DNA of 30,107 bases from a virus (lineage: Duplodnaviria; Heunggongvirae; Uroviricota; Caudoviricetes): positions 1-30,107 of IMG/VR virus record IMGVR_UViG_2698536535_000005; one strand, written 5' to 3'. Shown here in pieces: positions 1,369-19,584 of the stretch. The first letter of the stretch is position 1. Each line of letters starts with the position of its first letter. Position numbers and translations under genes: made by a program. Under the pieces are notes generated by a model, which saw nothing but the letters and a program-made list of their open reading frames with translations, did no database searches and was not told the DNA's origin.

Positions 1369-1444
1369 GCCGATATAGCTCAGTTGGTAGAGCAGCGCAT
1401 TCGTAATGCGAAGGTCGTAGGTTCGACTCCTATTATCGGCACCA
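1369..1444 (+). tRNA. thrW: tRNA-Thr (anticodon CGU)
   Basis: 76-nt sequence GCCGATATAGCTCAGTTGGTAGAGCAGCGCATTCGTAATGCGAAGGTCGTAGGTTCGACTCCTATTATCGGCACCA; acceptor stem GCCGATA/TATCGGC pairs, anticodon loop TTCGTAA gives CGT, encoded CCA end. Confidence 0.93.
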
Positions 1445-1610: not shown

Positions 1611-2825
1611 GTGAAACTCAATGCCCGTCAAATAGACACTGCCAAGCCAAAAGAGAAGGCTTACAAGCTGGCTGATGGTGGTGGTCTGTATCTCCTGGTA
1701 AAACCTAGTGGAGGAAAATACTGGCGCTTTAAATATCGTGTAGCTGGTAAAGAGAAGCTGTTAGCACTAGGTGTGTATCCTGAAGTTACCTTGGCTGATG
1801 CTCGTGCAAAACGTGAAGAAGCTAAAAGGGGTATCGCTGGGGGTATCGATCCGATGGAAGCGAAACGAGAGGAAAAGATTGCCCGGGAAACGCAGTTAAA
1901 CAATACCTTCAAAGATATTGCCCTTGAGTGGCACAGCAGCAAATTAAAAAAATGGTCTGCTGGTTATGCTTCAGATATCCTCGAAGCCTTCAACAAAGAT
2001 GTGTTCCCTTACATTGGCAAAAAACCAATCGCCGAAATCAAACCACTTGAACTTCTGAATGTGCTGCGACGCATCGAGGGGCGCGGTGCTACAGAAAAAG
2101 CCAAAAAAGTGAGGCAGCGGTGCGGGGAAGTTTTCCGCTATGCAATAGTCACTGGTCGCGCAGAGTATAACCCTGCCCCAGATCTTACTAGCGCGATGCA
2201 AGGCCATGAATCTAATCATTATCCTTTCCTCACAGCCAAAGAATTGCCTGATTTTTTCAAGGCATTGTCCAGTTACTCAGGAAGTGCATTGGTTGTTATG
2301 GCGGCTCGTCTACTGATTATCACTGGTTTGCGAACTGGCGAACTGCGCGGTGCATTATGGGATGAAATCGATCTCAACAAGGCTATCTGGGAGATACCTG
2401 CTTCACGGATGAAAATGCGTCGCCCTCATGTGGTGCCTTTGTCTAAGCAGGCTCTTTCTCTTATTGGGCAGATTAAAGAATTAACTGGTAATTATCCGCT
2501 TATGTTTCCCGGCCGTAATGATCCAAGGAAAACAATGAGCGAGGCTAGCATAAACCAAGTATTTAAACGCATCGGCTATAACGGAAAGGTTACTGGTCAT
2601 GGATTCCGGCACACCATGAGCACGATTTTACATGAGCAGGGCTATAACACCGCGTGGATAGAAACGCAGCTTGCACACGTTGATAAGAACTCAATTCGTG
2701 GCACGTACAATCATGCGCAATATCTGGACGGGCGGCGCGAGATGCTCCAGTGGTACGCCGACTATATGGATTCGCTCGAACATGGCGGTAACGTGGTGCA
2801 TGGCAAGTTCGGAAAATGTGGATGA
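1611..2825 (+). CDS. int: tyrosine recombinase, P4-type integrase (N-terminal arm-binding domain plus catalytic domain)
   Basis: 404-aa ORF, GTG start; N-terminus MKLNARQIDTAKPKEKAYKLADGGGLYLLVKPSGGKYWRFKYR is the typical P4-integrase N-terminal domain; C-terminal HGFRHT and trailing tyrosine region; lies directly next to the tRNA. Confidence 0.9.
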   Translation: MKLNARQIDTAKPKEKAYKLADGGGLYLLVKPSGGKYWRFKYRVAGKEKLLALGVYPEVTLADARAKREEAKRGIAGGIDPMEAKREEKIARETQLNNTFKDIALEWHSSKLKKWSAGYASDILEAFNKDVFPYIGKKPIAEIKPLELLNVLRRIEGRGATEKAKKVRQRCGEVFRYAIVTGRAEYNPAPDLTSAMQGHESNHYPFLTAKELPDFFKALSSYSGSALVVMAARLLIITGLRTGELRGALWDEIDLNKAIWEIPASRMKMRRPHVVPLSKQALSLIGQIKELTGNYPLMFPGRNDPRKTMSEASINQVFKRIGYNGKVTGHGFRHTMSTILHEQGYNTAWIETQLAHVDKNSIRGTYNHAQYLDGRREMLQWYADYMDSLEHGGNVVHGKFGKCG

Positions 2826-2953
2826 CTGGTTGCGTATACAGTAGTAGACTTTGAGCGACGAAAGAAAAGGCTGTGTCTAGGGTCGCTCCCGAAAATCCGT
2901 ACACCTCGACGGACTGGTACAGCCACTACAGTAGAGGACGCTGAGGTGTGCGT

Positions 2954-3766: not shown

Positions 3767-3807
3767 ACCCTGAGGGTGATTTACTGTTACCCTGAGGGTA
3801 TTTTTTT
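3767..3807 (+). terminator. putative intrinsic terminator formed by two ACCCTGAGGGT boxes followed by a T7 run
   Basis: Boxes at 3767..3777 and 3789..3799 can pair as an 11-bp stem with one central mismatch and an 11-nt loop, followed by TTTTTTT (3801..3807); sits 16 nt after the stop of the 2954..3751 gene. Confidence 0.45.
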
Positions 3808-3909
3808 ATCTTCCCCGTCAATTTTACCATCACCCTTAGGGTAGATTTCCTCCCGATTACCATCACCCTTAGGGTTAATTTCCTTCCGGTAACCATTAGG
3901 CCTGAGGGT
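3767..3909. promoter_or_regulatory. array of five palindromic ACCCTnAGGGT boxes between the integrase-proximal gene and alpA
   Basis: Boxes at 3767, 3789, 3832, 3865 and 3899; spacings 22, 43, 33 and 34 bp are close to multiples of the helical repeat. Confidence 0.5.
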
Positions 3910-3978: not shown

Positions 3979-4176
3979 ATGTCAAATACGCTTATTCGTT
4001 TAACAGAAGTTCAGCGTAGAACTGGATATAGCAAGGCATGGATTTATCGCCTTATGGGGCAAGGTAAATTTCCTGCATCAGTTAAAATTGGCTCGCGAGC
4101 TATTGCTTTCGTTGAGAGTGAAATTGACGAGTGGATTAATCAGCGTATTGCGGAATCACGCGGAACAGCTACCTGA
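3979..4176 (+). CDS. alpA: AlpA-family prophage regulatory protein (excisionase-like HTH regulator)
   Basis: 65-aa protein LIRLTEVQRRTGYSKAWIYRLMGQGKFPASVKIGSRAIAFVESEIDEWINQR, the characteristic AlpA sequence pattern; GAGG Shine-Dalgarno upstream. Confidence 0.85.
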   Translation: MSNTLIRLTEVQRRTGYSKAWIYRLMGQGKFPASVKIGSRAIAFVESEIDEWINQRIAESRGTAT

Positions 4177-4253
4177 TTAAATGGCTACGGGGCTATTTCC
4201 CCCAGCTATCCACCAGCAAATAAAAGTAACTTAATTCGATAGCAGGAGTTTTT

Positions 4254-5054
4254 ATGAAATTTCCAAAAACGCCCGTACAGGGGCGGGGCTTCGTTCGGCC
4301 TGAAAACCAGAATCTGCAAAATTTCGGCGAAATTATCCCGATTATTTCCGGCGTTATTGGCGGGAGTGAAACCACTATTGTTAGCGCCAGAGCGTTACAT
4401 AAGGCGTTAGGTGTAGGGCGCGTTTTCCGTTCGTGGATCAAGGGGCGCATTGAAGAATACGGGTTCACGGAAGGCGTGGATTATGAGGTTGTTGAATATT
4501 TGAGCCGACCCGATCCGGTGAGCGCAAAATCTCGCCAGCAAACCGCTCTTGAGTACATCATCACAGTGAACATGGCGAAAGAACTGGCGATGGTCGAACG
4601 TACCGAACAGGGCCGCGCCGTTCGCCAGTACTTTATCAAATGCGAGGAGGAGCTACACAAGGTTGCGCCTGTTCGTTCCGCAGCGTTACGCCGGGAACTG
4701 AAAGCCCGTATCACAGTTGCCAGCTACTTTAAGCCAATGTGTGCCGCGCTGGAGGCGTACCGGGCTGAACTGGGTAAAAACACACTCCAGCACCACTACA
4801 CCACGGAAGCGAACATGCTGGCGCGTATCGTACTGGGTGGCATGACTGCAAAACAGTGGGCACTGGCGAACGGCATTACAGGCGAACCACGCGACCACAT
4901 GAGCACGTTGCAGCTTGAGCACCTTTCTTACCTTGAGCAGAGCAATATCACGCTGATTGAGTTAGGCCAGGACTACCACCAGCGGAAGGCTGAATTAATT
5001 CGTCTTTCGCAGCGTTGGTTAGCCCGTCGCATGGAGGAAAACAGCCATGTGTAA
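4254..5054 (+). CDS. phage antirepressor-like protein (AntA/AntB-type N-terminal domain, KilAC-like C-terminal region)
   Basis: 266-aa ORF with AGGAG Shine-Dalgarno; N-terminal segment TIVSARALHKALGVGRVFRSWIKGRIEEYGFTEGVDYEV resembles the AntA/AntB antirepressor domain; assignment by eye only. Confidence 0.5.
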   Translation: MKFPKTPVQGRGFVRPENQNLQNFGEIIPIISGVIGGSETTIVSARALHKALGVGRVFRSWIKGRIEEYGFTEGVDYEVVEYLSRPDPVSAKSRQQTALEYIITVNMAKELAMVERTEQGRAVRQYFIKCEEELHKVAPVRSAALRRELKARITVASYFKPMCAALEAYRAELGKNTLQHHYTTEANMLARIVLGGMTAKQWALANGITGEPRDHMSTLQLEHLSYLEQSNITLIELGQDYHQRKAELIRLSQRWLARRMEENSHV

Positions 5055-5771
5055 CGCTCTGACCGTTACAAAAAGAGAAAGCGCCCCGTTGCCGGAGCGC
5101 CTTTGTGAACGAATAGCCTACTGCGCCATATTGCTTACTGTCTACGAGGCAGATTATAGCGTTGTGGTCGCACAGAGTGAAGGCGCTGATCACCGTTACT
5201 ACAGCACGCCAGAAATGCAGAATATTTTGCTGCAAAATGTCGTTGGTCACACTGTCCGGAAAGCAAAAAATTTTGCTGGTGGCGCGACTGATGCGATTTT
5301 GTCAGGTCGCCAGGTGCTGATCAATCTGATGTCTGATTTCGTTCTGGATAAAACAAAGGCGACCGCAGAGGGCCGCCAGTGGGAAAGCTACATACTTGAA
5401 CGCATCGCCAACAATGCCAGATTTGCGGCTGGTGGGCAATGTGTCAGCTTTGCACCAATGACTCTATGTTTAACTGAGGGTCATTATGGTGAATATGCTG
5501 GCTTGCTGGTGGGCTATTCCTGCTCTTTAACATTGCCATGCCGCGATGTTTTCCAGGTATGCGACCCCATTTTTGTGCGCCTGTACTCTTTAAGGAATTT
5601 CTCAAGGATAAACGCACAGGGCGCGAATCTGTTTGACTCATGCTCGTACGCTATCTTTCTGCGCTGTCTTTTCCGTGCCGGTGATGGTGTATTGGTTGAT
5701 TCTTTGTTGGTCATGGCGCAGCCCTGTAAAACGATGCACCGTAGTTCCTCACACCACGGCGCTGGTGATGG

Positions 5772-5951
5772 TTACTCCTGTTCTTTGGCCTTGCGGCGCT
5801 GGCGGTATTCAACTTCTCGCTTTAATGCTGCTGTTACAAACTGCCCTGTACTTTCACCAGGCATTTTTACCGCCTCAACATTGTTCATAACTTCATGCGG
5901 AACCCTTGCCGCAACTGTTTGTGATTTTGCGTTTACTGCTTTTGTCGCCAT
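5772..5951 (-). CDS. ribbon-helix-helix (Arc/MetJ/CopG-like) DNA-binding protein, putative repressor
   Basis: 59-aa minus-strand ORF (below the ORF-track cutoff) MATKAVNAKSQTVAARVPHEVMNNVEAVKMPGESTGQFVTAALKREVEYRQRRKAKEQE; beta-strand/helix/G-x-S/T loop/helix pattern typical of RHH proteins; AAGGGG Shine-Dalgarno 8 nt upstream; palindromic boxes in its promoter region. Confidence 0.5.
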   Translation of the reverse strand: MATKAVNAKSQTVAARVPHEVMNNVEAVKMPGESTGQFVTAALKREVEYRQRRKAKEQE

Positions 5952-5999
5952 GTTGTGTACCCCTTACAAAAAACAAATGCAGTATGCAGGAAAAAAAAT

Positions 6000-6051
6000 A
6001 AGTGTTCAACACTTGACGTGTTTAACACCTAGGCTTAAATTGGTGTTCAAC
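6000..6051. promoter_or_regulatory. three palindromic GTGTTCAACAC-type operator boxes in a divergent promoter region
   Basis: GTGTTCAACAC at 6000..6010, GTGTTTAACAC at 6016..6026, GTGTTCAACAC at 6041..6051; each is a GTGTT/AACAC inverted repeat; located between the minus-strand RHH gene and the rightward early operon. Confidence 0.45.
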
Positions 6052-6150
6052 ACCTTGTTGATGCAAGGTGCAGAAACGACAACGCCCCGCAGTGGTGGCA
6101 CACATGCAGGGCGTCTAACCACCAACGATAGCAAGAGTATCGAGGTAGCT

Positions 6151-6354
6151 ATGAGAAATCATACCACACACCCGCAAGGGCGGGACTCGCACAACCTGAA
6201 TAAATACATCTGGCGTTTTATCGCCCTGAGCACGGCACAACCGCGCGTAATTCACATCGAGGCCACCAGCGAACAGGAAGCACGCCAGCAATCTCCTGAT
6301 GGCTGCGTGATGGTATTCGCAGCCCGTATTCGCCAGGAGGTGGAACATGTGTAA
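6151..6354 (+). CDS. small hypothetical protein (likely first gene of the rightward early operon)
   Basis: Internal ATG of the 435-aa track ORF, preceded by GAGGT Shine-Dalgarno; ends in the EVEHV-stop coupling motif shared with neighbouring genes. Confidence 0.35.
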   Translation: MRNHTTHPQGRDSHNLNKYIWRFIALSTAQPRVIHIEATSEQEARQQSPDGCVMVFAARIRQEVEHV

Positions 6355-6571
6355 TGCAACATGGCCTGATGCAGCGGTAGACGCTATCAAAACGCTGATG
6401 GATTCACTTATTGAGATTTCTGCTATCGCTGGTGTGGCGCATAAACACGCAGCCAGAGAATCAGAATGCATCTCCCATTATTTAGCATTTGTGCAGCTAA
6501 AAGCCGATCAGGCACTGGATAAGGCCGGAAAAATTATCATGGCTGATGTGCAGGAGGTGCACCATGCATAA
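6347..6571 (+). CDS. small hypothetical protein, early operon
   Basis: AGGAGG Shine-Dalgarno; start overlaps the upstream stop in the CATGTGTAA coupling motif. Confidence 0.5.
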   Translation: MCNATWPDAAVDAIKTLMDSLIEISAIAGVAHKHAARESECISHYLAFVQLKADQALDKAGKIIMADVQEVHHA

Positions 6572-6929
6572 CCTGTCAATTTCTGACCTTAACAGCATTC
6601 AGTTTGACGAGAAATTTACCGGGCAGTTGCTGGTCAATGTGGAGAACGGGCGCATAGTGCGTAATTACCACCTGCCGGATGGTGCAATTGCCGGAAGCGT
6701 TGAAGCATTGCTGGAACTGGCGGAACGTGCGCGACTGATTAAGCCGTCAACGAGCCATCACGATGATGATCTGCATTTTACCGGGCGTATGGTGAGTCAC
6801 TACGAAAACGGCGTTGAAGTATCCCGCGAACGGCTGCGTGATGATTGCTGTTTCGGCACACTGCCGGAATTTATCGAGTTGCTGACCAGTTGCGGTTATC
6901 AGGTCATTCAGGGGGGTAAACATGCGTGA
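6564..6929 (+). CDS. hypothetical protein, early operon
   Basis: Start moved to the ATG preceded by CAGGAGGTG (track ORF begins at 6546); overlaps neighbours by start/stop coupling. Confidence 0.5.
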   Translation: MHNLSISDLNSIQFDEKFTGQLLVNVENGRIVRNYHLPDGAIAGSVEALLELAERARLIKPSTSHHDDDLHFTGRMVSHYENGVEVSRERLRDDCCFGTLPEFIELLTSCGYQVIQGGKHA

Positions 6930-7155
6930 TGATCGTTTTAATTCCCTGAAACGGGAATTTGATGGCGCACCGGAAGATGCAGCGGGCGCATTGTTGAGCG
7001 TTGCTGACATGATGAAAGCTGCATATTTTCTTATCAATACCAGTGGCTACAAGTCAGAGGGTGAAATGATTCTTAGTATTGCGTCGGACTATGCGGAATA
7101 TGTGGCAGAGACGCGTTACAGAAGAAAATTCACGGAGGATGTAAGCCATGCATAA
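6922..7155 (+). CDS. small hypothetical protein, early operon
   Basis: GGGGGG Shine-Dalgarno; overlapping stop/start with both neighbours. Confidence 0.45.
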   Translation: MRDDRFNSLKREFDGAPEDAAGALLSVADMMKAAYFLINTSGYKSEGEMILSIASDYAEYVAETRYRRKFTEDVSHA

Positions 7156-7348
7156 TCATGAAGCGCATGTACCCGTAGTGCTTAATGTGCCAGATGATTT
7201 CACCGGACGCGTACTGGTTTACCTGGATAAAGGGAAAGTGAAATCACAATGCCGACTGAAAAGTAATGAGATTGTTGGTTCTCCTGAATTTTTTTCTGAA
7301 CTTTGTATTCGTGCGGAAATAAAACCGGAACTGCTGACAGGAAAATAA
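7148..7348 (+). CDS. small hypothetical protein, early operon
   Basis: GGAGGA Shine-Dalgarno; overlapping start/stop with the previous gene. Confidence 0.45.
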   Translation: MHNHEAHVPVVLNVPDDFTGRVLVYLDKGKVKSQCRLKSNEIVGSPEFFSELCIRAEIKPELLTGK

Positions 7349-7352
7349 AACC

Positions 7353-7643
7353 ATGAAAAAGAAAAATTCTGGCTTTACTGCCAGCGGCCTCTCTCGGCCT
7401 GAAATCCGCCCCGGTGATATTTCCCGGGACACCAGACGCGGGGGACGGGTGGTTATTCGTCACGTTACGCCAGGCAATATCACCTACCGCCGTGAGGCTT
7501 ACGAATATGACTGCGTAATGCCGCGCCGTCAGTTTGATCGTGATTTTATTCTGGTGGAAAACAAACAACAGGCAGTGGCGAGACGTGCAGCCACGAATAT
7601 TAAAAAAATCCGGGCAATGTTGGTTGCGGGAGGTAAGAAGTGA
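7353..7643 (+). CDS. hypothetical basic protein, early operon
   Basis: 96-aa ORF beginning 5 nt after the previous stop; its stop overlaps the GTG start of the primase gene. Confidence 0.5.
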   Translation: MKKKNSGFTASGLSRPEIRPGDISRDTRRGGRVVIRHVTPGNITYRREAYEYDCVMPRRQFDRDFILVENKQQAVARRAATNIKKIRAMLVAGGKK

Positions 7644-9445
7644 AAAACGCACCGAGTCTAAAATATCAGCCGAAGGATAAATTCACTGAGGTAATCATTT
7701 TTGCCGGGACGGATGCTTACGCCCATGCTCAACACTGGATTGAAAGTGAAGGACGAAAACACGGCGATAACGTGCCTCCTGTTTACCTGGGGCCAAAGCA
7801 ACTGGCAGACCTGGCGAATATCCGCATTATTGACGAGAAACGCCGTTTTGCGCGTGTCTATATCGCGGGGGAGATAGAGCCAATCCAGATCAATACTATC
7901 GCTGAAAAGCTGGCGCTGGCTGGCGTACAGGAGGCGAAATTATACAAAGGTATCACCGACCAGGAACCGGAGAACTGGCGCGACTACCTGCAACGGATCC
8001 GCGAACAGGCTGAGCACGGGGAAGTTTCAGTGATGAAATTAGCTACAAAAAATAGTGGTCTACCCAAGCCTGCATTAAATCAGATGGGAGCCAGCCAGAG
8101 AGGGGAAGTGTTACTTGAACATTATGGAGGAGCACTGGCGATAAATGATGATTCTGATGTAGTTCACCATTACAACGGAATTGTTTGGGAGCCTGTATCT
8201 GATAAGGAACTCCAGCGGTCTATGGCGAAGATTTTTATTGATGCCGAAATTAGTTATTCGCAAAACGCCATTAAATTTGCCGTAGAGACAATGAAATTGA
8301 GTCTACCTGTTATGGGGGGAGCGGACAGAAATCTTATTGGGTTCAGTAACGGTGTTTTTGATATCAGGACAGGAAATTTTCGGGAACACAACAAAAATGA
8401 CTGGTTGTTAAATGCCAGTGAATTACCGTTCAGCCCGCCAGAAGAGGGGGAAACGCTGGCAACACATGCGCCGAATTTCTGGAAGTGGTTGCGTCGTTCG
8501 GTGGCGGATAATGCTCGTAAAGCGGATCGCGTACTGGCGGCATTATTCATGGTACTGGCGAACCGGTACGACTGGCAGTTATTCCTTGAGGTAACGGGGC
8601 CGGGCGGAAGCGGTAAAAGTGTGATGGCGGAGATTTGTACCATGCTGGCGGGTAAGGCCAACACAGTATCGGCAAGCATGAAGGCTCTGGAAGACGCAAG
8701 GGAACGCGCGTTAGTAGTTGGCTTTTCGCTGATTATCATGCCGGATATGACTCGCTACGCTGGCGATGGTGCAGGAATTAAGGCAATTACTGGCGGCGAC
8801 AAGGTGGCAATTGATCCGAAACATAAAGCCCCCTACTCCACACGTATTCCGGCAGTAGTGCTTGCGGTAAACAATAACGCCATGTCATTCAGTGACCGAA
8901 GCGGGGGGATCTCGCGTCGTAGGGTGATATTTAATTTCTCTGAGGTCGTACCGGAGAACGAACGCGATCCCATGCTGGCGGAAAAGATAGAAGGCGAACT
9001 GGCGGTAGTGATTCGCCATTTGCTAACACGATTTACCGACCAGGACGAAGCTAAAAGACTACTTTATGAGCAGCAAAAATCAGAAGAAGCGCTGTTGATA
9101 AAGCGCGAAGGTGATTCACTGGTGGACTTTTGCGGCTATCTGATGTCGTTGGTTAAATGTGAAGGAATGATGGTGGGCAATGCGGAAATAGTGCCATTTA
9201 GCCCGAGGCGATACCTGTATCATGCTTATTTAGCCTATATGTCAGCGCATGGCCTGGGAAAACCAGTATCACTGACACGCTTTGGTACTGATATGCCAGG
9301 AGCTATGGCGGAATACGGAAAGGAGTATAAGCGGGCTAAATGCACTAAAGGCCCGGATAAAGGGCGAGTGATAACAAATGTTCTGTTAGATGATGATGCT
9401 GATGGCTGGTTGCCAGCAGCTACAGGGATTAACGACAGAACATAA
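7640..9445 (+). CDS. P4-family phage/plasmid primase-helicase (C-terminal P-loop NTPase domain)
   Basis: 601-aa ORF, GTG start after GGGAGG; Walker A VTGPGGSGKS and downstream Walker-B-like hydrophobic-DM stretch; overall resemblance to P4 alpha C-terminal / pri-rep proteins of satellites; iteron array immediately downstream. Confidence 0.75.
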   Translation: MKNAPSLKYQPKDKFTEVIIFAGTDAYAHAQHWIESEGRKHGDNVPPVYLGPKQLADLANIRIIDEKRRFARVYIAGEIEPIQINTIAEKLALAGVQEAKLYKGITDQEPENWRDYLQRIREQAEHGEVSVMKLATKNSGLPKPALNQMGASQRGEVLLEHYGGALAINDDSDVVHHYNGIVWEPVSDKELQRSMAKIFIDAEISYSQNAIKFAVETMKLSLPVMGGADRNLIGFSNGVFDIRTGNFREHNKNDWLLNASELPFSPPEEGETLATHAPNFWKWLRRSVADNARKADRVLAALFMVLANRYDWQLFLEVTGPGGSGKSVMAEICTMLAGKANTVSASMKALEDARERALVVGFSLIIMPDMTRYAGDGAGIKAITGGDKVAIDPKHKAPYSTRIPAVVLAVNNNAMSFSDRSGGISRRRVIFNFSEVVPENERDPMLAEKIEGELAVVIRHLLTRFTDQDEAKRLLYEQQKSEEALLIKREGDSLVDFCGYLMSLVKCEGMMVGNAEIVPFSPRRYLYHAYLAYMSAHGLGKPVSLTRFGTDMPGAMAEYGKEYKRAKCTKGPDKGRVITNVLLDDDADGWLPAATGINDRT

Positions 9446-9472
9446 TACGAAATTTATAAGCTGAAACGTAAA

Positions 9473-9811
9473 GGTAGACGGTTGGTAGACAGATTCACTT
9501 AACCCTCTACCAACCATCTACCAATTAATATTTTGAATTATAAAGATATTTTCAATGTGGTAGAGAGGTAGACAGTTATTTCTATATTCCTAAACCACGG
9601 GGGGTATATAAAAAACAGATAGTTAAGGGGGTATTTTTTAAATTTCTCTTTTAACTGTCTACACTGTCTACCATTTAGTAAAAATCATTAATTATCAATG
9701 TATTAATGCGGTAGACCGTTGGTAGACAGTTTGCAGATTGTTTTTTTGTTATGTGTTAATAACATTAAATAAATCAATCAATTATATCGGTAGACAGTTG
9801 GTAGACAGTTG
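9473..9811. repeat. iteron array, putative replication origin of the element
   Basis: At least ten copies of GGTAGAC(AGTT) in both orientations (e.g. 9473, 9484, 9567, 9708, 9721, 9788, 9800; inverted at 9504, 9515, 9655, 9664) interspersed with AT-rich stretches, directly 3' of the primase gene. Confidence 0.7.
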
Positions 9812-9816
9812 TAACG

Positions 9817-10359
9817 ATGGGGCAAAGCATGACTAAGCTGACCATTAACAGAAAACCAAAAGGTATTTACGGCACGCCACAGAAAACGACGCAGGCGGCA
9901 CAGGAGCAGGATAAAACCACATCGGCGCATAAAGTGATGCCCGGTAACCAGAAAGCGCAGCAGAAGCCTACAGGGGCGACACCGTGGCGGCATATGACCA
10001 AACGCCAGCGCAAAAACCGCAGGCGCGTTAACCGCCTCACTGAGTTGTGGCCTGACTTATTCAGCCGGGAAGCACTGAAGCCGCTTAAGGTGGGGATATT
10101 CGACGACCTGATGCAGGATCTCGCCGTCAGGGGGCTGGCATTCGGGCCAGGGGCATTGCGTGCGACGCTGGCATCTTATGCGCAGTGTCCGCGCTATTAC
10201 CGCGCCTTAATGGCTGGTGGGGTACGCTACGACCTGAAAGGCCAGCCGTGCGGCGAGGTGACACCACAGGAACAACAGGACGCAGAAACGCGGCTGGTGG
10301 CGCTGAATGAGAAGCGCAAACGCCAGCGCCGGGCAGCAAAGGAGACAATAGGCGCATGA
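9817..10359 (+). CDS. FinO/ProQ-family RNA-binding protein
   Basis: Central region ALKPLKVGIFDDLMQDL...LRATLASYAQCPRYYRALMAGGVRYDLKGQPCGEVTPQE aligns by eye with the E. coli ProQ N-terminal FinO domain (PLKIGIF, LR.AL..Y, RY, R.DL.G.PCGE). Confidence 0.6.
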   Translation: MGQSMTKLTINRKPKGIYGTPQKTTQAAQEQDKTTSAHKVMPGNQKAQQKPTGATPWRHMTKRQRKNRRRVNRLTELWPDLFSREALKPLKVGIFDDLMQDLAVRGLAFGPGALRATLASYAQCPRYYRALMAGGVRYDLKGQPCGEVTPQEQQDAETRLVALNEKRKRQRRAAKETIGA

Positions 10360-10643
10360 TTCACGACAGCAAAGCGGAAGCACTGGAAGCGCGTGGTCTG
10401 TACCGGAGAGCGGCGGCGCGGTGGGCTGAGGTCATCATGCTGGCGAATGATGACAAGGCACGGGAACAGGCGGCAAAACGTCGCGCGGAATGTATCCACA
10501 AGGCAGCATGCCCACCAGCAAGGCAGGATAATTTCGGGGAGATGCGCGAAACCATCAGCCGGGCACATGCCGGGATGGGATTACATCAGCCCAATGGTGA
10601 GGCATTCAGGAAATACCAAAAAAAGAACAATTGTAGTCAGTAA
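10356..10643 (+). CDS. PerC-like small transcriptional regulator (tentative)
   Basis: 95-aa ORF with AAGGAG Shine-Dalgarno; N-terminus MIHDSKAEALEARGLYRRAAARWAEV resembles the PerC/Pch family N-terminal pattern as I recall it. Confidence 0.4.
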   Translation: MIHDSKAEALEARGLYRRAAARWAEVIMLANDDKAREQAAKRRAECIHKAACPPARQDNFGEMRETISRAHAGMGLHQPNGEAFRKYQKKNNCSQ

Positions 10644-10777
10644 CAGAGGATGGGATTCTCTTGGTTTTTTGTTGATGCTTTCTGAGGAAATCTACTACGT
10701 TGCTGAGCAGATGAATATTCAATTGCATCTGGGTTCCTGATAAGATTAATCTGAATATTTTCATTTGGAATAGGGAT

Positions 10778-11920
10778 ATGAATAAAACTTTAATTGCAAC
10801 ATTAGTCGGTATAGTAATGTTAACCGGATGTGGGCCAGAAGAGTTAACTCCAGAACAGAAACAGGAAGTAGCGGCTCTTAAAGCTGAACTGTCGCAAACG
10901 GAAGGTGAAATATCAGCAGCTAAGGAAGTTGACCAGCAGTTTTCTGGTGGGTTGATAAAAAATCTGACAACAGCAAGACTGGAAATATTAGGAACTAATA
11001 AAGCGCTTTTGGAACAGCGTATTAATGCTATTGAATCAGGTGCCAAAATTGATGTTGTTGTATCTGGAGTAAAACCTGATCCTGAGCTTGCGGCTTCAAT
11101 TAAAACTGAAATTGACAGCTTAGATGCAAAAATCAACGAAGCCAAAGCTGATGCTCGTCAGTATAGTGGTGGTCTGATAAAGGTACTAAAATTATCTACT
11201 GTTGCCACTGAAGAGCAGACCATGGCAATGTTGCAGCAAAAGTACCTCACAGCCAAGTATGGCCTCGCTGAAGTTAAGCTGGCATCAGTACAAGCTAATG
11301 ACGCAAAAAACAGTACTGAAACGGAAGTAACAGCCAAAAATTCCCAAGAGCAACTTCCTTTACTCCCGCCAGCGGATGGTCCGTTTGGCTTAGAAGCCGG
11401 TCTTACACAGAAAAACATCGAAGATATGATCGGTGCTAAGCTCAAGCCACTACCAGACAGTGTGAATCTGTATACTTCTGATAAATTACCGAAGCAAAAC
11501 GCAGATTTTGAAATGTATGGTTTGCTGATCTCCCCGAAAGCTGGTTTATGTCAAATACGGGCTTTAGGAAAAAATATTGATACTGATAGCTATGGATTGG
11601 CTCTTAAATCCAAGTTTGAAGAATTGAGTAATTCTTTAAGTTCTCTGTATGGAAAGGCTGATACTACAGACTTTTTGCTGGCTGGTTCAATTTGGAAAGA
11701 TCCTCAGGACTGGATGAGGGGGCTAAACAAAAAAGAACGCTTCTTATCTGCCACATGGAAGGGAACAAAAGAAATACCATTAAAAAACAATATCGATACT
11801 ATCTCTATTGAGGCCAGAGCGAACAATTCCACTCAGGGATATGTCTATCTGCAGTACTCATTTACAAATGACGAAATTTGTCAGGCAGAAATTGAAGGGG
11901 CGAAAAAAAGTTCCCTTTAA
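10778..11920 (+). CDS. lipoprotein with coiled-coil region and internal repeat
   Basis: Signal peptide MNKTLIATLVGIVMLTGC with LTGC lipobox; repeated motif QFSGGLIKNL / QYSGGLIKVL; AT-rich; intrinsic terminator directly downstream. Confidence 0.7.
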   Translation: MNKTLIATLVGIVMLTGCGPEELTPEQKQEVAALKAELSQTEGEISAAKEVDQQFSGGLIKNLTTARLEILGTNKALLEQRINAIESGAKIDVVVSGVKPDPELAASIKTEIDSLDAKINEAKADARQYSGGLIKVLKLSTVATEEQTMAMLQQKYLTAKYGLAEVKLASVQANDAKNSTETEVTAKNSQEQLPLLPPADGPFGLEAGLTQKNIEDMIGAKLKPLPDSVNLYTSDKLPKQNADFEMYGLLISPKAGLCQIRALGKNIDTDSYGLALKSKFEELSNSLSSLYGKADTTDFLLAGSIWKDPQDWMRGLNKKERFLSATWKGTKEIPLKNNIDTISIEARANNSTQGYVYLQYSFTNDEICQAEIEGAKKSSL

Positions 11921-11931
11921 ACAATCCGTGC

Positions 11932-11960
11932 AAAGCCCCTTAGTAAGGGGCTTTTATATA
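11932..11960 (+). terminator. intrinsic terminator
   Basis: Perfect inverted repeat AAAGCCCCTTA/TAAGGGGCTTT (11932..11954) followed by a T-rich tail. Confidence 0.55.
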
Positions 11961-11984
11961 TTAATGTTCAACGGGGGGGATTAG

Positions 11985-12308
11985 ATGAAAGATAATCTAG
12001 AAAAACTAATTGAAAATACTTTAAAAGATATTCTATTAGCTAATGCTGCTCTAACATTCATTTTTGCAATACCAATGGCTATTATCAGTAGGCATGGGAT
12101 GGGTATCACAATCTGGTTTATAACTGTGCTCATTGCACCTGCTCTGTGTGCAGTAGGTGCATGGCTTGTATCTCGAACATTCGGTCATGCTGAGGAGTTC
12201 TTTCATCGTCGGTGGGCTAAGCGAATCTATGTTTTTTATACTCTTGCGGCTGCCGAGTTTTTGCTTGTGTACTCAATCGCGCAAATAATGAAAAATCTGA
12301 TGAAATAA
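11985..12308 (+). CDS. small integral membrane protein
   Basis: 107-aa ORF with two or three long hydrophobic segments (ALTFIFAIPMAIIS, ITIWFITVLIAPALCAVGAWLV, IYVFYTLAAAEFLLVYSI); G-rich Shine-Dalgarno. Confidence 0.5.
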   Translation: MKDNLEKLIENTLKDILLANAALTFIFAIPMAIISRHGMGITIWFITVLIAPALCAVGAWLVSRTFGHAEEFFHRRWAKRIYVFYTLAAAEFLLVYSIAQIMKNLMK

Positions 12309-12711
12309 TTAACAAGTTATTATCATGGGGTTTGTGGCTGTTAACCTGCAGTGAGGCGACAATCGTGTATTTATAAAAACTTCCCCTTTTCACTCCCCGC
12401 TGTTTCTTCTGCTATTTCCTTTATGTTTGCATGCAGCAACATCTACCATACCTTTGCAGAAAAATCAGAGCATTTAGTGCCGAAGGTTGGTTTATTGATG
12501 CTTTTTGTTTCATTTATTGCAATTATTGTCATTCAGAAGGGATCATCATGAAAAATCACGGAGTAAAGCCAGTTTTACTTTCCCGGGGGCAGATCGAAGC
12601 CCTGTAACGTATCCAGGCCGAAAAGCGTCAGAAATCTGTGCTTGGTGTGGCACCGTCGATTCATGTTATTGCCCGGCAACTGATGGATAAGGCACTTAAA
12701 GAGGTGAGGCT

Positions 12712-12984
12712 GTGAAATTAAATATCAGTGTGGATAAACGCCAGCTATGGCAGAAAAAAGAGAACAGCGAGGCATTCAGGGCTTTGCTGGTGGAAAATCT
12801 TCGGCACCGGTTCAGTGGAGAGTTGCCTGATGCACTGGGGAAGAAACTGGAATCCCTGACGGTGGAAATTGGCGATTATGGCTTTGTTGATGTTGAAAGC
12901 ACGACTGCCAACACAGAAATCGTAAAGCAGGTCGTCAATGATGTAATGAAAACCACGCTTAGCCAGCCATCCTGGCGCAACTGA
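12712..12984 (+). CDS. hypothetical protein
   Basis: 90-aa ORF with GTG start after GAGGTGAGG; no recognisable motif. Confidence 0.35.
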   Translation: MKLNISVDKRQLWQKKENSEAFRALLVENLRHRFSGELPDALGKKLESLTVEIGDYGFVDVESTTANTEIVKQVVNDVMKTTLSQPSWRN

Positions 12985-13083
12985 ATCAGTAAGGGGCGGT
13001 TATTGCCCCTTTCCTCCATACCCACAACGCATTCCCTTTTCGCATGAAATTATTTTTTATCGTATATGCATGAGGTGAGTTAC

Positions 13084-13608
13084 ATGTTGATGAGTAAAGC
13101 CGAATACGCCAAATACAAAGGCGTAAGCCGCCAGACAGTTTACGACTGGATCGAGAAAGGCGAAGTGATCATGTCTGGCAAAAAAATTGATGTGGAGGCG
13201 ACAGAGCAGCGGAACAGCCCACCGGCACAGGGGAAAGACACCGTTTCTGAAATGTGGCCAGAAAGAACGCTGGAAATGACGTGGGGCGAGTTCTGGAAAG
13301 CAGTTAAGGCCAGAGACGGTAAAATCCCTGCGCCAGTAACGGACGACGACATACAGCAACGTGTGCTGGATGCAGCCGGGGAATTAGACTGGGAAGTGCA
13401 ATTTCTTGATGATGGCGGGATTTGGATGGATGACGGCGATGCTGAGTTTTATTTCGAGCAATATGATCTCAGGCAGAATGCCGAACTGGTGATTGGTACG
13501 CTGCGACGTGAGGTCTGTTATGTGGCTGATGCTTGTCCTGACGAGCTGGATAACTGGAGCGAAGCCGGACTAAACGCCCTGGCTGCATGGGAAAAAACAG
13601 GTCATTAA
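13084..13608 (+). CDS. HTH DNA-binding protein with acidic C-terminal domain (possible small-terminase-like or regulatory protein)
   Basis: Start taken at the ATG preceded by GAGGTGA (track ORF starts 13066); N-terminal MSKAEYAKYKGVSRQTVYDWIEKGEV is a phage-type helix-turn-helix; repeat array immediately downstream. Confidence 0.55.
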   Translation: MLMSKAEYAKYKGVSRQTVYDWIEKGEVIMSGKKIDVEATEQRNSPPAQGKDTVSEMWPERTLEMTWGEFWKAVKARDGKIPAPVTDDDIQQRVLDAAGELDWEVQFLDDGGIWMDDGDAEFYFEQYDLRQNAELVIGTLRREVCYVADACPDELDNWSEAGLNALAAWEKTGH

Positions 13609-13615
13609 CGGCCGC

Positions 13616-13821
13616 AAAAAGTGTCAAGTTGAGCAGCTTGCCAGGTTGGCACTTTACACTCTGAACACGAAAAAGTGTCAACCTCGCTGTAAACCCTGCC
13701 ATTACTGGCCTTGAGCCATATTTACCACGCCAGAAACCCGTGAAAACCGCGAAAAGTGTCAAGTTGTCATGCTTAGAAATGCCAGGGTTTTTCGCGAAAA
13801 AGTGTCAAGTGTGTCAACCTG
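13616..13821. repeat. array of AAAAGTGTCAA boxes (putative protein-binding sites)
   Basis: Five GTGTCAA cores at 13621, 13675, 13756, 13803 and 13811, most preceded by an A-run, between the HTH gene and the next small ORF. Confidence 0.6.
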
Positions 13822-13850
13822 CGATATTAAGATTTCCTAAGGTGTAAACC

Positions 13851-14045
13851 ATGACCATCACCGAAGCCGATTTGCTGGATATAGTGCGCAGCGTGGCTGG
13901 AATTAGCGAATTGCCAAAGAAAGCCAGATTTGCCGATTATGCGGACGTGGTAGCTGCTGCAATGCAGCTAGAAGATCATGCTCCGAATGAAGGAGATTTG
14001 CTGCATATCCGCATCCGATCGGCGGCGATACTGGCAGCCCGTTGA
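13851..14045 (+). CDS. small hypothetical protein
   Basis: 64-aa ORF; weak support only. Confidence 0.3.
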   Translation: MTITEADLLDIVRSVAGISELPKKARFADYADVVAAAMQLEDHAPNEGDLLHIRIRSAAILAAR

Positions 14046-14399
14046 CGCCACCAGCATAGAGAGAACGCCGTGCCTTACGAGTGGAAGAAACCGGACATGC
14101 TGCGGCGATAACCCGTTGATTAAAAGACGGCTCAAAATTGAGCCGGGTAGCAGTTTGTCTGATTTATGCGTTTAGTTGTTGATATTGCCGATGACGAAAA
14201 ATTGCACTCTGTAGCTAGTGGGCGTTTATGTTGAAAACTGCCGATTCTGATAGGCTTTTATCATGCACTTGCATGAAAACTGCTCTGTGTAGCGGGCAGG
14301 CCTGCTGGGGAGAGCATTGCGCGCTTTAGTAGCAATAAAACACATCAATAAGGCTTTTTATTTTCTTGTATTATAAAATTATACTTATTATCTTGTTGA

Positions 14400-14429
14400 T
14401 TGACAGATAAAAACAAGGGATATGCATAA
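14400..14429 (+). promoter_or_regulatory. candidate sigma70 promoter for the 14433..16852 operon
   Basis: TTGACA (14400..14405), 18-bp spacer, CATAAT (14424..14429); so close to the ATG that either the transcript is near-leaderless or another promoter is used. Confidence 0.25.
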
Positions 14430-14432
14430 TAA

Positions 14433-15122
14433 ATGAACAAATCACCTACTGAGATAATTAATATGCTAAGCGATAAGTTCAATAGTAACTTTCGTGAATG
14501 GCAGGGCATACAAGATAAAAAATTAGATAAAGTAATTATCTCAATTTTCACTCTTAACACGATTGCTGAAATTTTGAATAAAAAGAAAACATCAGTTCAT
14601 CATGATGTTTGTATTAAAATTTTTAGTGAGATTATTGCTGATACGTCATCTTCTTTATATCTTTCTGCCTGTGCCATAGATAAACCAGCTAATATTGTTC
14701 TAAGGAGAGTTTTGGAACTAGGTGTCGCATCTATTTATCTTTGGGATATGCCTCATGTTGTATATTCTTGGAAAAATCATGATGAAGACTTAAGTTTCAG
14801 TGATATGTTGAAGCATATAACAAATCAAGGCTATATAGACTACTTCACAGAAAATGAGAAGATAGGAGGGAAAGTATGTGTTATTGATATGAGAAGAGCA
14901 CAGAAAATTTATGGACAATTAAGTGATATCGTTCATGGAAAAATAACCTCATTTGAAACTGATTTGCCTAATAAGTTCACTTTTGAAAGTGAAGATTGGG
15001 AGAGGTTCATAGGTCTGGCTGAGGTTGTTTTGGGTATGATAATTAATTCCAATATTGTTCGTCATAAGATAAGAAAAGAAGTGCTATCTTCATTTCCTAA
15101 ATCTAGTGAGGTAGTTTTATAA
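14433..15122 (+). CDS. hypothetical protein, component A of candidate two-gene system
   Basis: 229-aa ORF, strongly AT-rich; stop overlaps the start of the downstream ATPase gene (TAATG); no recognisable catalytic motif. Confidence 0.7.
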   Translation: MNKSPTEIINMLSDKFNSNFREWQGIQDKKLDKVIISIFTLNTIAEILNKKKTSVHHDVCIKIFSEIIADTSSSLYLSACAIDKPANIVLRRVLELGVASIYLWDMPHVVYSWKNHDEDLSFSDMLKHITNQGYIDYFTENEKIGGKVCVIDMRRAQKIYGQLSDIVHGKITSFETDLPNKFTFESEDWERFIGLAEVVLGMIINSNIVRHKIRKEVLSSFPKSSEVVL

Positions 15123-16852
15123 TGTCTATGTTAGACACTGAGTTATTACATGCAGCACGTACCGAAGATCTTGAGTTGAAACAGGTCAAACAACTGGCTG
15201 TTCTTGGTGAGTTTGAAAAAGATGTTGTAGCAAAACTAAAAATAGCGGGCTCTCATCTGATTCAGGGTGCCAGAGGAATTGGAAAGTCTATGCTTCTAAG
15301 AGCGGCAGAAGCTGAATTAGATAGTGATTTTCCTGTTAAAAAGATTGTGGGGGTATATGTTAATTTCAAAACCAGTACTTTGCTGGAAGGGGTTAAAGCT
15401 GACAATAAAAATGCATTTCAGATATGGGTAAGCGCTAAGTTACTACAAGCTTTGTACGAAAAGTTGATATTTTTAGATGTCATTCGTGACAATAATAGCA
15501 GTGATCCATTTCAAAGAATTTTTGGGATTAAAACTATAACTGGAATGAAAGATGCTCTACAATCTAAAATTCATCTGCTTCAAAGGTTATCAAGAGATCC
15601 TTCTTCAGATAAATTGTTGAATGAAATTGGAGAGGATTTTTTAGATAAGGTTAATGATATAAGTTATGTAAATGACATCATCAAGGAGATAATTCAAGAA
15701 TACCAACTTAATAGAATTGTTTTTTTATTTGATGAGGCTGCTCATACCTTTATACCAGAACAGCAGGAAATATTCTTCGAAATATTTAAATTGCTTCATG
15801 GCGGTAAAATTGCAGTTAAGGCGGCTGTATATCCGTCAATTACATCGTATGGTAAAAATTTTGAAGTTGGTCAAGATGCCATGATGATAAACCTCGGAGG
15901 ATACGAAACTGGAAATATTGGGCGGGAACGAACACGACGTTTATATCGTGATCTATTAGATAAACGGGTCACACAAGGAGCAGCAAAAAAGAGAATATTG
16001 GCTAAAGGTGATTTGCTAGATCAATGTATTCATCTTTCATCCGGAAACCCTAGAGCATTTCTCCATTTATTTAATAAAGTATATGAGAAAGGTTATACTG
16101 AAAGAGATCTTTTAACTTGCACTCAGGATTATGTCAATCAAGAATTATTACCTTATCATTTAGGGCTTTCAAAACGATTACCTAAGTATTCTCACCATGT
16201 TCGCATTGGACTTGATATTCTTAGGGAGTGTATTATCCCTGAGCTTAGATTGAAAAATAACAGAGAGAAAAAGACTCAAACCCAATCTGCTTTTTTTGTT
16301 CTTCCTCCCGTTATTTCTCCAAATCTTAGATTGTCTCTAGATTTGCTTTGTTATTCTGGTGTTCTTTCCAAGCAAGGGTCCGTGAAGATGTCTAATCGAA
16401 AATCGGGTCAGCGCTACATGGTTAATTTATCATTACTTTTCACTGAAAAAGCATTCGTATCTAATAAGTTCGGGGAGATAATAACACTATTATCTCTCGC
16501 TGATTATAAAGAATTTGGCGCAGCAGATTCTGAATTAGAGCGTTTTTTAGAAAAATTGAAAGAATCAGCTGATGAGTGTCAAACTTGTTCCGCTGAGTTA
16601 CCTGGAGATGCGAAGTTTTGTCCTAAGTGTGGGACACCTGTACCAACAAGGTCAATTGTAGGACAACTTCTTGATGATCCGGTTAGTTGCTTGTCAATTA
16701 GTAACGCAATATGCGACCGAATAAAAGAAACCTATCCTAAAGTGGGTGATATCGTTCACTGTTCGAGGGATGATCTGAAAAAAATACCGTACATTAAAAA
16801 TGTTAGGTCAAAAATAATCAAGAACGCAGCGGATGAATATATCTCAGGCTAA
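15122..16852 (+). CDS. Orc1/Cdc6-like AAA+ ATPase with C-terminal zinc ribbon and HhH (RNA polymerase alpha-CTD-like) domain, component B
   Basis: 576-aa ORF; Walker A GARGIGKS, Walker B IVFLFDEAAH, sensor-2-like SGNPRAF; C-terminal CQTC-x11-CPKC zinc ribbon; last ~60 aa resemble the RpoA alpha-CTD; GAGG Shine-Dalgarno; terminator downstream. Confidence 0.8.
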   Translation: MSMLDTELLHAARTEDLELKQVKQLAVLGEFEKDVVAKLKIAGSHLIQGARGIGKSMLLRAAEAELDSDFPVKKIVGVYVNFKTSTLLEGVKADNKNAFQIWVSAKLLQALYEKLIFLDVIRDNNSSDPFQRIFGIKTITGMKDALQSKIHLLQRLSRDPSSDKLLNEIGEDFLDKVNDISYVNDIIKEIIQEYQLNRIVFLFDEAAHTFIPEQQEIFFEIFKLLHGGKIAVKAAVYPSITSYGKNFEVGQDAMMINLGGYETGNIGRERTRRLYRDLLDKRVTQGAAKKRILAKGDLLDQCIHLSSGNPRAFLHLFNKVYEKGYTERDLLTCTQDYVNQELLPYHLGLSKRLPKYSHHVRIGLDILRECIIPELRLKNNREKKTQTQSAFFVLPPVISPNLRLSLDLLCYSGVLSKQGSVKMSNRKSGQRYMVNLSLLFTEKAFVSNKFGEIITLLSLADYKEFGAADSELERFLEKLKESADECQTCSAELPGDAKFCPKCGTPVPTRSIVGQLLDDPVSCLSISNAICDRIKETYPKVGDIVHCSRDDLKKIPYIKNVRSKIIKNAADEYISG

Positions 16853-16859
16853 AGAAAAG

Positions 16860-16883
16860 CCCCATGTAAATGGGGTTTTTTTT
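16860..16883 (+). terminator. intrinsic terminator
   Basis: CCCCAT-GTAA-ATGGGG hairpin (6-bp stem, 4-nt loop) followed by T8, 8 nt after the ATPase stop codon. Confidence 0.8.
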
Positions 16884-16892
16884 AATATGGGT

Positions 16893-17284
16893 TTATACTT
16901 TTAATGCCCGCCAATGCATTAATTCAATTCTTTGTATTAAATAATTAGATCTATTATAAGCTCTTCTGACTTCATTTCTATCAATATGAGATAATGACGT
17001 CTCTATTGCATCTGAATTAAACCCTGCTTCATTTAAAGTTTTACTCGCAATAGAACGCATCCCATGGTAACTAGCTTTCCACCGTAACCAATTCATTTAA
17101 GAGCAGCATTAGCCGTTTGACTATTCATTGGTTGCATAGGATCGTTTCTGCTAGGGAATACATATTCTCGATGACTACTAATAGGTTTCATCACATCCAG
17201 AAATTCTAATGCCTGTGGAAATAAATGAGCAATGTGTTTCCGGTTAGCCTTCATCCGTTCGGTGGGAATTGCGGAGGGCAGCAT
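16893..17284 (-). pseudogene. integrase remnant (C-terminal part of a P4-type tyrosine recombinase, frameshifted and 5'-truncated)
   Basis: Two adjacent minus-strand ORFs (16893..17096, 17093..17284) together align with the C-terminal ~130 aa of the integrase at 1611..2825 (FPSRNDP vs FPGRNDP; HIDRNEVRRAYNRSNYL vs HVDKNSIRGTYNHAQYL); no N-terminal half is present. Confidence 0.7.
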
Positions 17285-17680
17285 AAATGCAGAGGGAAAT
17301 CTGCAAATCCTAGGCTGGCCTTGCCATAAAGCGAAGACGGCGCGGGAGCATACAAGATGATAATTATTATTAGTAACAAAGGGGAGGGCGGGTCAAATCT
17401 CTGTACCCCTAGCTGTTCTGGACCGCCTGCCTCGTCAAATTTTTACACCCGCAAAATTAAAAAAAATACTTCACGCTGGTGGTTATCCTTGGGCATCCAC
17501 TAGCCTTTCATCATTGACTGCTGGTGAGGCTGAGACTCGAAGAAAAAGAGTGCTAGAGAGTCGGTTTTTGCACAGTTTGGGGTAAGGGAAAATTTATTGG
17601 GGGTACATTTGGGGGTATATATAAAAATGCAATGTAAAAATGTCATTAAATATCAATGCGATTGTTGTTTGTGTTTTGTT

Positions 17681-17696: not shown

Positions 17697-18302
17697 CAAG
17701 AAAATCAATAACTTAGCTTAACTTCTCTAAGAAATTGTATCTTCTGTTATCACTTACAAACGCCTATACGTTGTTATGGGCTTTGGTAGTGTAACACGTA
17801 TGGGCGAGTAGTTCCCAGGCTCAACCTCGTAACAAGTTCCTTTGAAGCTGGAAGACGTGCCACCGTCTCTAAACCTTCTACCAAAACTCTTAGCAAGATG
17901 TTCCACACCTGGCGCGGTGTCCAATGATGCTACACGTCGAGATGACGTCGCAGAGGATAAACAGGCTAAATGATGGGAAGAGTTTTAAGTGCAATAGTGG
18001 ATTAAAGCCCACCTCTTCAAAACCTAACTTGATCGGGAAAGAATCAAGCTCTAGCACGGTTTCGTCCACCGGAGTACAACGGGTGCCTGATAAGAGAAGA
18101 ACTGCTAAGACTTCATAGCTTTTGTGAAAAAGCCCTTTTTAGTGGATATGCCTACGGCGCTTATTTTTTGGTATAACCATCAAAGGCGCTTTATGGCTCC
18201 TATTGTCTTGAAAATGTATCTTTACTTGTATTGTGTTTTATGCGTAGTCTCCCTGTGTAGTATGTAACTTGTTAATTTTCATATGAATACAGAGGCAACA
18301 CG

Positions 18303-19563: not shown

Positions 19564-19584
19564 TTTCCTTCTGTGTTGATTTGT

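Follow-up and report, generated by a model that had tools for sequence, protein, structure and literature searches.

Among bacterial RNA chaperones, FinO/ProQ proteins form the third major class. To our knowledge, the characterized members encoded by mobile elements, namely FinO, FopA, and PcnR, are each plasmid-borne and each restrain the plasmid that carries them. A locus in the IMG/VR record IMGVR_UViG_2698536535_000005, whose 30,107 nucleotides are referred to here as the window, raises the question of what such a protein might do on a mobile element of another kind. An earlier, sequence-only reading had assigned the open reading frame (ORF) at 9817–10359 to a FinO/ProQ-domain RNA chaperone, encoded by a mobile element and implying post-transcriptional control by a partner small RNA (sRNA). 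In this study, we address the identity of the protein, the nature of its carrier, its genomic context across related elements, the evidence for a partner RNA, and the roles that these data would allow.

Identity and structural features of the FinO/ProQ protein

The plus-strand ORF comprises 180 uninterrupted codons. The Pfam search that had been proposed as a check returned a significant match of its product to PF04352 (ProQ/FINO), with an E-value of 2.4e-23 and a score of 82.6 bits against a cut-off of 27 bits. The match covers residues 68–172 and profile positions 5–108 of 109, spanning the entire FinO/ProQ domain of about 105 residues; the by-eye alignment to ProQ over about 60 residues is confirmed and extends to the whole domain. 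By BLASTP, the product shares 38% identity with the N-terminal domain of E. coli ProQ over 88 residues (E = 1e-15). A phmmer search against all PDB chains retrieved FinO-domain proteins only, namely ProQ (5nb9, 1e-11), NMB1681 from Neisseria (3mw6), F-plasmid FinO (1dvo, E = 3.6e-9), and Legionella RocC (7rgu/7rgt) and Lpp1663.

An AlphaFold2 model built from 21 family members reaches a pLDDT of about 90 over residues 62–150, where helices and a beta-hairpin are laid out as in the FinO domain, followed by a long C-terminal helix (residues 150–179). Residues 1–54 have a pLDDT below 50 and are predicted to be disordered. When the model was compared with the PDB using Foldseek, the top 26 matches were all FinO-domain structures, with target TM-scores of at most 0.85 and rmsd values of 2.1–2.4 Å, and the next matches had E-values above 2. 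ProQ residues Tyr70 and Arg80 are cited as essential for RNA binding. In the numbering of the 180-aa ORF, ProQ K35, R58, R69, and Y70 correspond to K91, R115, R126, and Y127, and ProQ R80, D82, G85, and C88 to R137, D139, G142, and C145. The RNA-binding residues Y127, R137, K91, R115, and R126 are invariant or nearly so across the subfamily. Sequence, profile, and fold comparisons all agree with the original domain assignment, and on these grounds the product is almost certainly an RNA binder of the FinO-domain type.

Because the N-termini of homologues, all reading MT(K/T)LTI(N/S)RKP, align to M5 of the 180-aa ORF, and a GGGG Shine–Dalgarno-like run is positioned 6 nt before the ATG at 9829, the true coding sequence is most likely 9829–10359 (176 aa) rather than the maximal ORF from 9817. 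RefSeq annotates a coding sequence with the same coordinates as WP_032194282.1, 'ProQ/FINO family protein'. The N-terminal extension of about 60 residues is rich in K, R, Q, and T, carries a net charge of about +12, is predicted to be disordered, and is specific to the family; it is closed by the invariant basic motif KRQRKNRRRVNRL and is conserved within the subfamily and constrained by purifying selection (dN/dS 0.15–0.34). Along the gene, dN/dS is 0.2–0.3 in tail and domain alike, indicating purifying selection. The coding evidence shows the gene at 9829–10359 to be functional and to encode a FinO/ProQ-domain protein.

The carrier element

The window is E. coli chromosome, in which proA and the tRNA-Thr gene thrW are followed by an island; over its first 17.7 kb, the window shares 99.6% identity with strain SCU-316. 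The features of the island are listed in Table 1.

Table 1 Features of the island and of the FinO/ProQ-family gene in the window
Feature	Position	Strand	Evidence
tRNA-Thr (CGU), thrW, attachment site of the island	1369..1444	+	Rfam, RefSeq
Tyrosine integrase	1611..2825	+	Pfam Arm-DNA-bind_3, Phage_int_M, Phage_integrase
int-alpA RNA motif	2870-2937	+	Rfam RF02996, 45.5 bits
Gene for a 267-aa protein	between int-alpA motif and AlpA-like gene		
AlpA-like HTH regulator	3979..4176	+	RefSeq CDS, 100%-identical SCU-316 locus
AntA/AntB antirepressor-family gene	4254..5054	+	Pfam PF08346
Two small genes	between AntA and Icd-like gene	-	
Conserved non-coding block, ~92 nt	5348..5446	-	between antirepressor genes and icd
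Icd-like gene, head of replication operon	6151..6354	+	RefSeq annotation
DUF4222 gene, end overlaps primase start	7353..7643	+	Pfam PF13973
D5_N/DUF5906/Pox_D5 primase-helicase, satellite replication protein	7640..9445	+	Pfam, TIGR01613, PHROG 864
AT-rich intergenic spacer, probable iteron origin	9446..9816	.	iteron GGTAGACNGTT scan
FinO/ProQ-family CDS	9829..10359	+	ORF, PF04352, RefSeq, homologue N-termini, dN/dS
N-terminal extension	9829..10017	+	pLDDT, composition, subfamily conservation, dN/dS
FinO/ProQ domain (residues 68-172 of 180-aa ORF), leading into long C-terminal helix	10018..10332	+	Pfam, phmmer, AlphaFold2, Foldseek
PerC-family regulator gene	10356..10643	+	Pfam PF06069, E=8.8e-31

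Homologues of the AlpA-like HTH regulator in the related loci L005 and L017 match PF05930 (Phage_AlpA), and this protein is a candidate master activator, as in Gram-negative phage-inducible chromosomal islands (PICIs). Upstream of its gene, four perfect ACCCTNAGGGT palindromes, against 0.38 expected, lie at 3767–3875 and are likely operator sites. Of 80 related satellite loci, 77 contain the Icd-like gene, which in the window is separated from the DUF4222 gene by several small ORFs. The overlap between the DUF4222 and primase genes recurs in L003, L005, L011, and L017, which suggests translational coupling. The primase-helicase contains the C-terminal region of the P4-family primases (TIGR01613) and matches the DNA primases of PHROG 864 with an E-value of 3e-156. 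Downstream of the PerC-family gene lie a lipoprotein-like gene and further cargo.

The element combines an integrase at a tRNA attachment site, an AlpA-like regulator, and a primase with an adjacent origin within a size range of 10–17 kb, and it lacks lysis genes. Its backbone is common to 117 IMG/VR contigs and to the verified EcCIMP1. Judged by its genes, the island is a Gram-negative PICI-type phage satellite, and its presence at thrW bears out the suggestion that the FinO/ProQ protein is encoded by a mobile element. EcCIMP1 is an experimentally mobilized PICI that occupies the same proA–thrW site, and helper-phage-dependent excision, replication, and packaging have been demonstrated experimentally for this relative only (PMC11773190). 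The two elements share the int/AlpA/AntA/Icd/DUF4222/primase backbone and a PerC-family gene, EcCIMP1_025, whose product is 47% identical to PerC of the window; unlike the window element, EcCIMP1 has no FinO-family gene.

Several further observations were made along the window. Two overlapping plus-strand cargo genes at 14433–16852, for proteins of 229 aa and 576 aa, resemble a defence system and have no PADLOC match; the 576-aa protein is an ORC/CDC6-like NTPase of the AAA+/STAND type whose C-terminus carries a zinc ribbon. A minus-strand integrase remnant at 16909–17285 marks the satellite end. From about 17.7 kb onward (17700–30107), the window diverges from SCU-316 and contains a second element encoding an HTH_36 protein, a major capsid protein E (24992–26020), a Dit-like tail protein (28294–28971), and a minus-strand integrase (29052–30050). 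This element, in tandem with the first, may be a satellite that forms capsids or what remains of a prophage. Chi sites (GCTGGTGG) are dense, with 12 in the island part (4210–17475), including three in non-coding 5275–5505 and two within the FinO ORF (10213 and 10293). Across 1.37 Mb of related satellites (L018–L134), Chi density is about 0.84 per kb and skewed to the primase strand, possibly shielding replicating or packaged DNA from RecBCD.

Position relative to the replication module

An iteron origin just 3′ of a replication gene is the classical placement. The spacer of about 370 nt that follows the primase gene contains 11 copies of GGTAGACNGTT in both orientations and an AT-rich core; 11 of the 12 matches in the window fall within it, compared with 1.0 expected for the entire window. 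Inverted iterons form strong hairpins (z of −5 to −7), the first pair (9473–9522) yielding a 17-bp hairpin directly after the primase stop codon. The spacer ends 6–18 nt upstream of the FinO start and probably serves as the replication origin of the satellite.

To compare the context of the gene, a protein-retrieved set of loci was combined with 117 IMG/VR satellite contigs found independently through the conserved non-coding block, and loci were retained if their sequence continued for at least 2.5 kb beyond the primase gene, which left 90. The FinO gene is present in 33 of these 90, about two thirds of the related satellites lacking it. In all 33 it lies directly after ssb, after PerC, or, in loci that have lost ssb, after the origin, and the gap between ssb and FinO is 31–36 nt with no promoter or terminator. 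The FinO gene is an accessory gene that opens the variable region after the replication module, usually within the primase–ssb operon.

A placement invariably beside ssb or the origin, together with the highly basic tail, would suit a nucleic-acid chaperone of the origin, which would bind single-stranded DNA, primer RNA, or R-loops alongside SSB and the primase-helicase with no part in gene regulation. We regard this as highly unlikely, however, since the gene is missing from most satellites with the same replication module and the characterized family members are all RNA regulators (PMC9977716).

Coupling to PerC

In the window, the FinO stop codon and the PerC start codon overlap as ATGA, an arrangement that implies a single operon with translational coupling. 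Among the 90 loci, 23 carry both genes, 10 FinO only, 8 PerC only, and 49 neither; these counts are inflated by near-identical elements and the loci are not phylogenetically independent, so the association is suggestive rather than proven. In satellites with FinO, the gene usually forms a single operon with PerC. The adjacency is retained in E. ruysiae, E. albertii, Pantoea, and Citrobacter, with the order reversed in L011 and L025, and the pairing recurs with different integrases and with primases of either the D5_N or the DUF927 type. The most distant pair, in a Pantoea locus, shows 43% identity for FinO and 41% for PerC. A 138-aa product encoded after FinO in the commonest lineage was considered as a further PerC relative and rejected, as it is not one. 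In that lineage, very large proteins are encoded after FinO (L005–L010, 9564–16498; L136, 13481–18649); they resemble the proteins annotated in EcCIMP1 as phage DNA-ejection and lytic-transglycosylase proteins, which suggests hijacking of a P22-like helper. PADLOC returned no defence-system match for FinO and its neighbours.

The coupling to PerC could reflect a lysogenic-conversion module, in which the FinO-like protein and PerC act from the resident island on host genes, PerC at promoters such as LEE1 and the FinO-like protein on host sRNAs or 3′UTRs as an extra ProQ-like chaperone. The arrangement in the window lineage would fit, as the origin and its strong hairpin separate the pair from the primase operon and make a promoter of its own possible. 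Furthermore, PerC of the related EcCIMP1 alters LEE1 expression in C. rodentium (PMC11773190), and FopA and FinO occasionally bind chromosomal RNAs (PMC9977716). In most lineages, however, the gene lies about 35 nt after ssb with neither promoter nor terminator and so forms part of the induced replication operon, most E. coli carriers need not have LEE, and mobile-element FinO proteins are usually highly specific (PMC9977716). We therefore consider action on host genes unlikely. It is also improbable that the pair constitutes a portable two-tier regulatory cassette that reprograms the development of the helper or virulence loci of the host, such as LEE. In such a cassette, the FinO-like protein would capture host or helper sRNAs or terminators, competing with or extending ProQ, and PerC would act at the level of transcription; this would make it the first FinO-family protein with a role in the conflict between phages and satellites.

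Search for a partner RNA

Post-transcriptional control through a partner sRNA, as put forward in the sequence-only reading, is a fair inference from family precedent (PMC9977716), but the window offers no direct support for it: Rfam, terminator, and fold scans for structured sRNA candidates with terminator hairpins gave nothing specific. At gathering as well as permissive thresholds, Rfam identified only tRNA-Thr and the int-alpA motif in the window, and no known family of the FinO-partner type. The int-alpA motif was rejected as a partner, as it tracks one integrase type and has no U-tail here; it ends in AGAGG just before the start of the 267-aa gene, abuts the ribosome-binding site of that gene, and so resembles a 5′ leader. 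When folding was scanned in sliding windows, only the origin iterons showed significant structure. Neither the terminator region that follows perC nor the antisense strand of the ORF was more stably folded than its shuffled controls (z about +0.7). Synonymous-site identity is flat along the FinO ORF, with no extra conservation. In a k-mer co-inheritance test across nine lineages, no non-coding sequence travelled with FinO.

Three individual candidates were also rejected. A terminator-like hairpin with a 5-bp stem on the minus strand of the ORF (10037–10021) was discarded because its T-run is forced by conserved Lys-Asn codons and its changes are mixed, one being compensatory (L005) and one disruptive (L003). 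A putative antisense RNA of about 70 nt at the antA start has no more structure than expected by chance. The third was the conserved minus-strand block at 5348–5446, which also occurs in L003, L005, L011, and L013 and in the 117 IMG/VR contigs and has no Rfam match. It consists of an invariant 13-mer, TTGCCCACCAGCC, a middle part that varies and occurs in 39 variants, and an intrinsic terminator, GGCGACC...GGTCGCC TTTGTTTT, which is again invariant and is the sole part supported as structure. It was rejected as an sRNA dedicated to FinO with an invariant seed, since the 'seed' turned out to be Chi, in complement, with its flanks, and the block is equally common in FinO-negative satellites. The block may represent a small or 3′-end RNA or a Chi site beside a terminator, and the terminator may be a FinO ligand in the way that any terminator would be, not a dedicated one.

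As a separate observation, the E. albertii satellite L003 carries isrK and a C4 antisense RNA, which are immunity RNAs of the P4/P1 type, upstream of icd (2242–2430). Both are absent from the window element, so immunity modules differ between otherwise similar satellites.

A partner sRNA for the FinO-like protein is a reasonable but unsupported proposal. A dedicated partner, if there is one, would be common to all satellites of the family or encoded outside the element, by helper phage or host, and the target of the protein could equally be an element, helper-phage, or host RNA. That no cis-encoded partner is co-inherited would also fit a helper-directed factor, which would bind antisense or terminator RNAs of the helper phage and hinder or aid its developmental switch for the benefit of the satellite. 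The gene is accessory and lineage-variable, as helper-specific functions would be, and it occupies the stretch beyond the primase gene where the authors of the EcCIMP1 study place packaging candidates of PICIs (PMC11773190). Nevertheless, no helper is known for the element, there is no sequence evidence for such a target, and PADLOC yields no match, making a dedicated helper-directed function rather improbable.

Distribution of the subfamily

A tblastn search of 72,556 plasmids found no close relative, the best matches being less than 45% identical across the domain; a single closer match in this set is a 4.8-Mb record of chromosome rather than plasmid size. The same search of 50,697 phage genomes likewise found no close relative. 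Escherichia has close relatives in abundance, and a few occur in Salmonella, Citrobacter, Shigella, and Pantoea. A scan confined to species-representative genomes gave three loci only, and a profile search of 1.84 billion representatives gave 4624 superfamily members, 17 of them at E ≤ 1e-30. At the DNA level, a homologue is present in 1,159 of 5,426 complete E. coli genomes (21%), at 1,637 places and with up to nine per genome, all chromosomal and none on plasmids; carriers include O104:H4. The subfamily is chromosomal and satellite-borne, and it is present in about one fifth of complete E. coli genomes, sometimes in several copies.

Every E. coli entry among the matches listed is named 'ProQ/FINO family protein'. 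For these copies RefSeq already contains the domain call, and the sequence observation itself is captured by routine annotation. ProQ/FinO and PerC genes are also listed as PICI accessory genes, ProQ/FinO for instance in E. cloacae (PMC13612085), and our literature search found no functional study of the satellite-borne FinO/ProQ subfamily. The present work delimits this subfamily as chromosomal and satellite-borne and establishes how common it is. It also shows that the gene keeps a fixed place behind the replication module and is recurrently coupled to PerC, and that the search for a cis-encoded partner RNA was negative.

Proposed role in the satellite cycle

FinO-domain proteins grip terminator-type 3′ hairpins, and flexible basic extensions supply their chaperone activity; members encoded by mobile elements bind one or very few RNAs and typically restrain the replication or transfer of their own replicon (PMC9977716). 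We somewhat favour the view that the protein is a specialized chaperone that acts on a transcript of the satellite or the helper once the satellite cycle is induced. Like FinO, FopA, PcnR, and RocC, it would clamp the 3′ hairpin and U-tail of one or a few transcripts, and its basic tail would then stabilize the bound RNA or promote pairing with a target mRNA. It would most likely act during the induced cycle, because its gene is co-transcribed with the primase and ssb genes. In doing so, it could tune the replication or late genes of the satellite itself, or genes of the helper phage, in the way that plasmid-borne members hold their replicon in check.

A narrower reading, in which the protein specifically controls replication or late genes of the satellite itself, is more doubtful. 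About two thirds of related satellites, the verified EcCIMP1 among them, do without the gene, so it is not needed for the basic satellite cycle, and this weakens the case for a core role in replication control. If the subfamily does control satellite replication, helper development, or, together with PerC, host virulence, then control by RNA chaperones reaches phage satellites, and many E. coli strains possess a fourth FinO-domain protein.

Comparison with FinO, ProQ, FopA, and PcnR

FinO of F-like plasmids resembles the satellite protein in its FinO domain (1dvo, E = 3.6e-9), similar length, and basic N-terminal region, which in FinO drives RNA duplexing. However, the score against the NCBIfam FinO model NF010317 is 58.6 bits, below the cut-off of 136, and the satellite gene is chromosomal, lies outside any tra operon, has no FinP or traJ in the window, and never occurs on plasmids; no known partner RNA family of FinO appears among the Rfam matches. 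These features do not place it within FinO sensu stricto. The shared domain, length, and basic N-terminus might also suggest a trans-acting fertility inhibitor, a chromosomal substitute for FinO that stabilizes FinP-like RNAs of incoming F-like or IncI plasmids, and FinO can adopt foreign RNAs such as RepX (PMC9977716). Nevertheless, similarity to FinO is weak, limited to the domain, and far under the family cut-off, the gene is never plasmid-borne, and the N-terminal helix region of FinO is not conserved, leaving such a function with very little probability.

ProQ and the minimal ProQ NMB1681, the latter being the top Foldseek match, are the best sequence and fold matches of the satellite protein. 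Yet its score against the NCBIfam ProQ equivalog NF003434 is 56.1 bits against a cut-off of 127, PF04352 is the sole domain detected, and the C-terminus is a single helix. Unlike enterobacterial ProQ, which belongs to the core genome, it has neither the ProQ linker nor the C-terminal Tudor-like domain, and it is encoded by an accessory island gene; it is not a member of the ProQ group.

FopA (YafB), encoded by the IncI plasmid pCol1B9 of Salmonella, shares more of the overall plan. It is likewise encoded by a mobile element, is about 200 aa long, and has a FinO domain without a Tudor domain, a disordered N-terminus with basic stretches, and the Tyr and Arg residues for RNA binding. In contrast, its identity to the satellite protein is 32% over 112 domain residues only, the N-termini are unrelated, and IncI plasmids are absent among the tblastn matches, so that the satellite protein falls outside the FopA clade. 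FopA is plasmid-borne and has as its partner Inc, the antisense RNA of repZ, whereas the carrier here is a chromosomal satellite.

PcnR of IncI2 plasmids is another FinO-domain protein of a mobile element, and the analogy with it is positional only. The RNA element recognized by PcnR is a stem-loop within a leader ORF that is coupled to the replication gene (PMC9977716). In the satellite, the counterpart would be the DUF4222 ORF coupled to the primase gene, where a CTGGC-loop-GCCAG hairpin (7368–7384) just past the DUF4222 start codon is conserved, with no covariation, and recalls the leader-ORF control of plasmid rep genes. Overall, the architecture of the satellite protein is of the plasmid type, with a basic tail and a FinO domain as in FinO and FopA, but its lineage and carrier differ. 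The profile scores and genomic distribution show it to belong to a distinct subfamily, one that by sequence occurs on chromosomal islands only.
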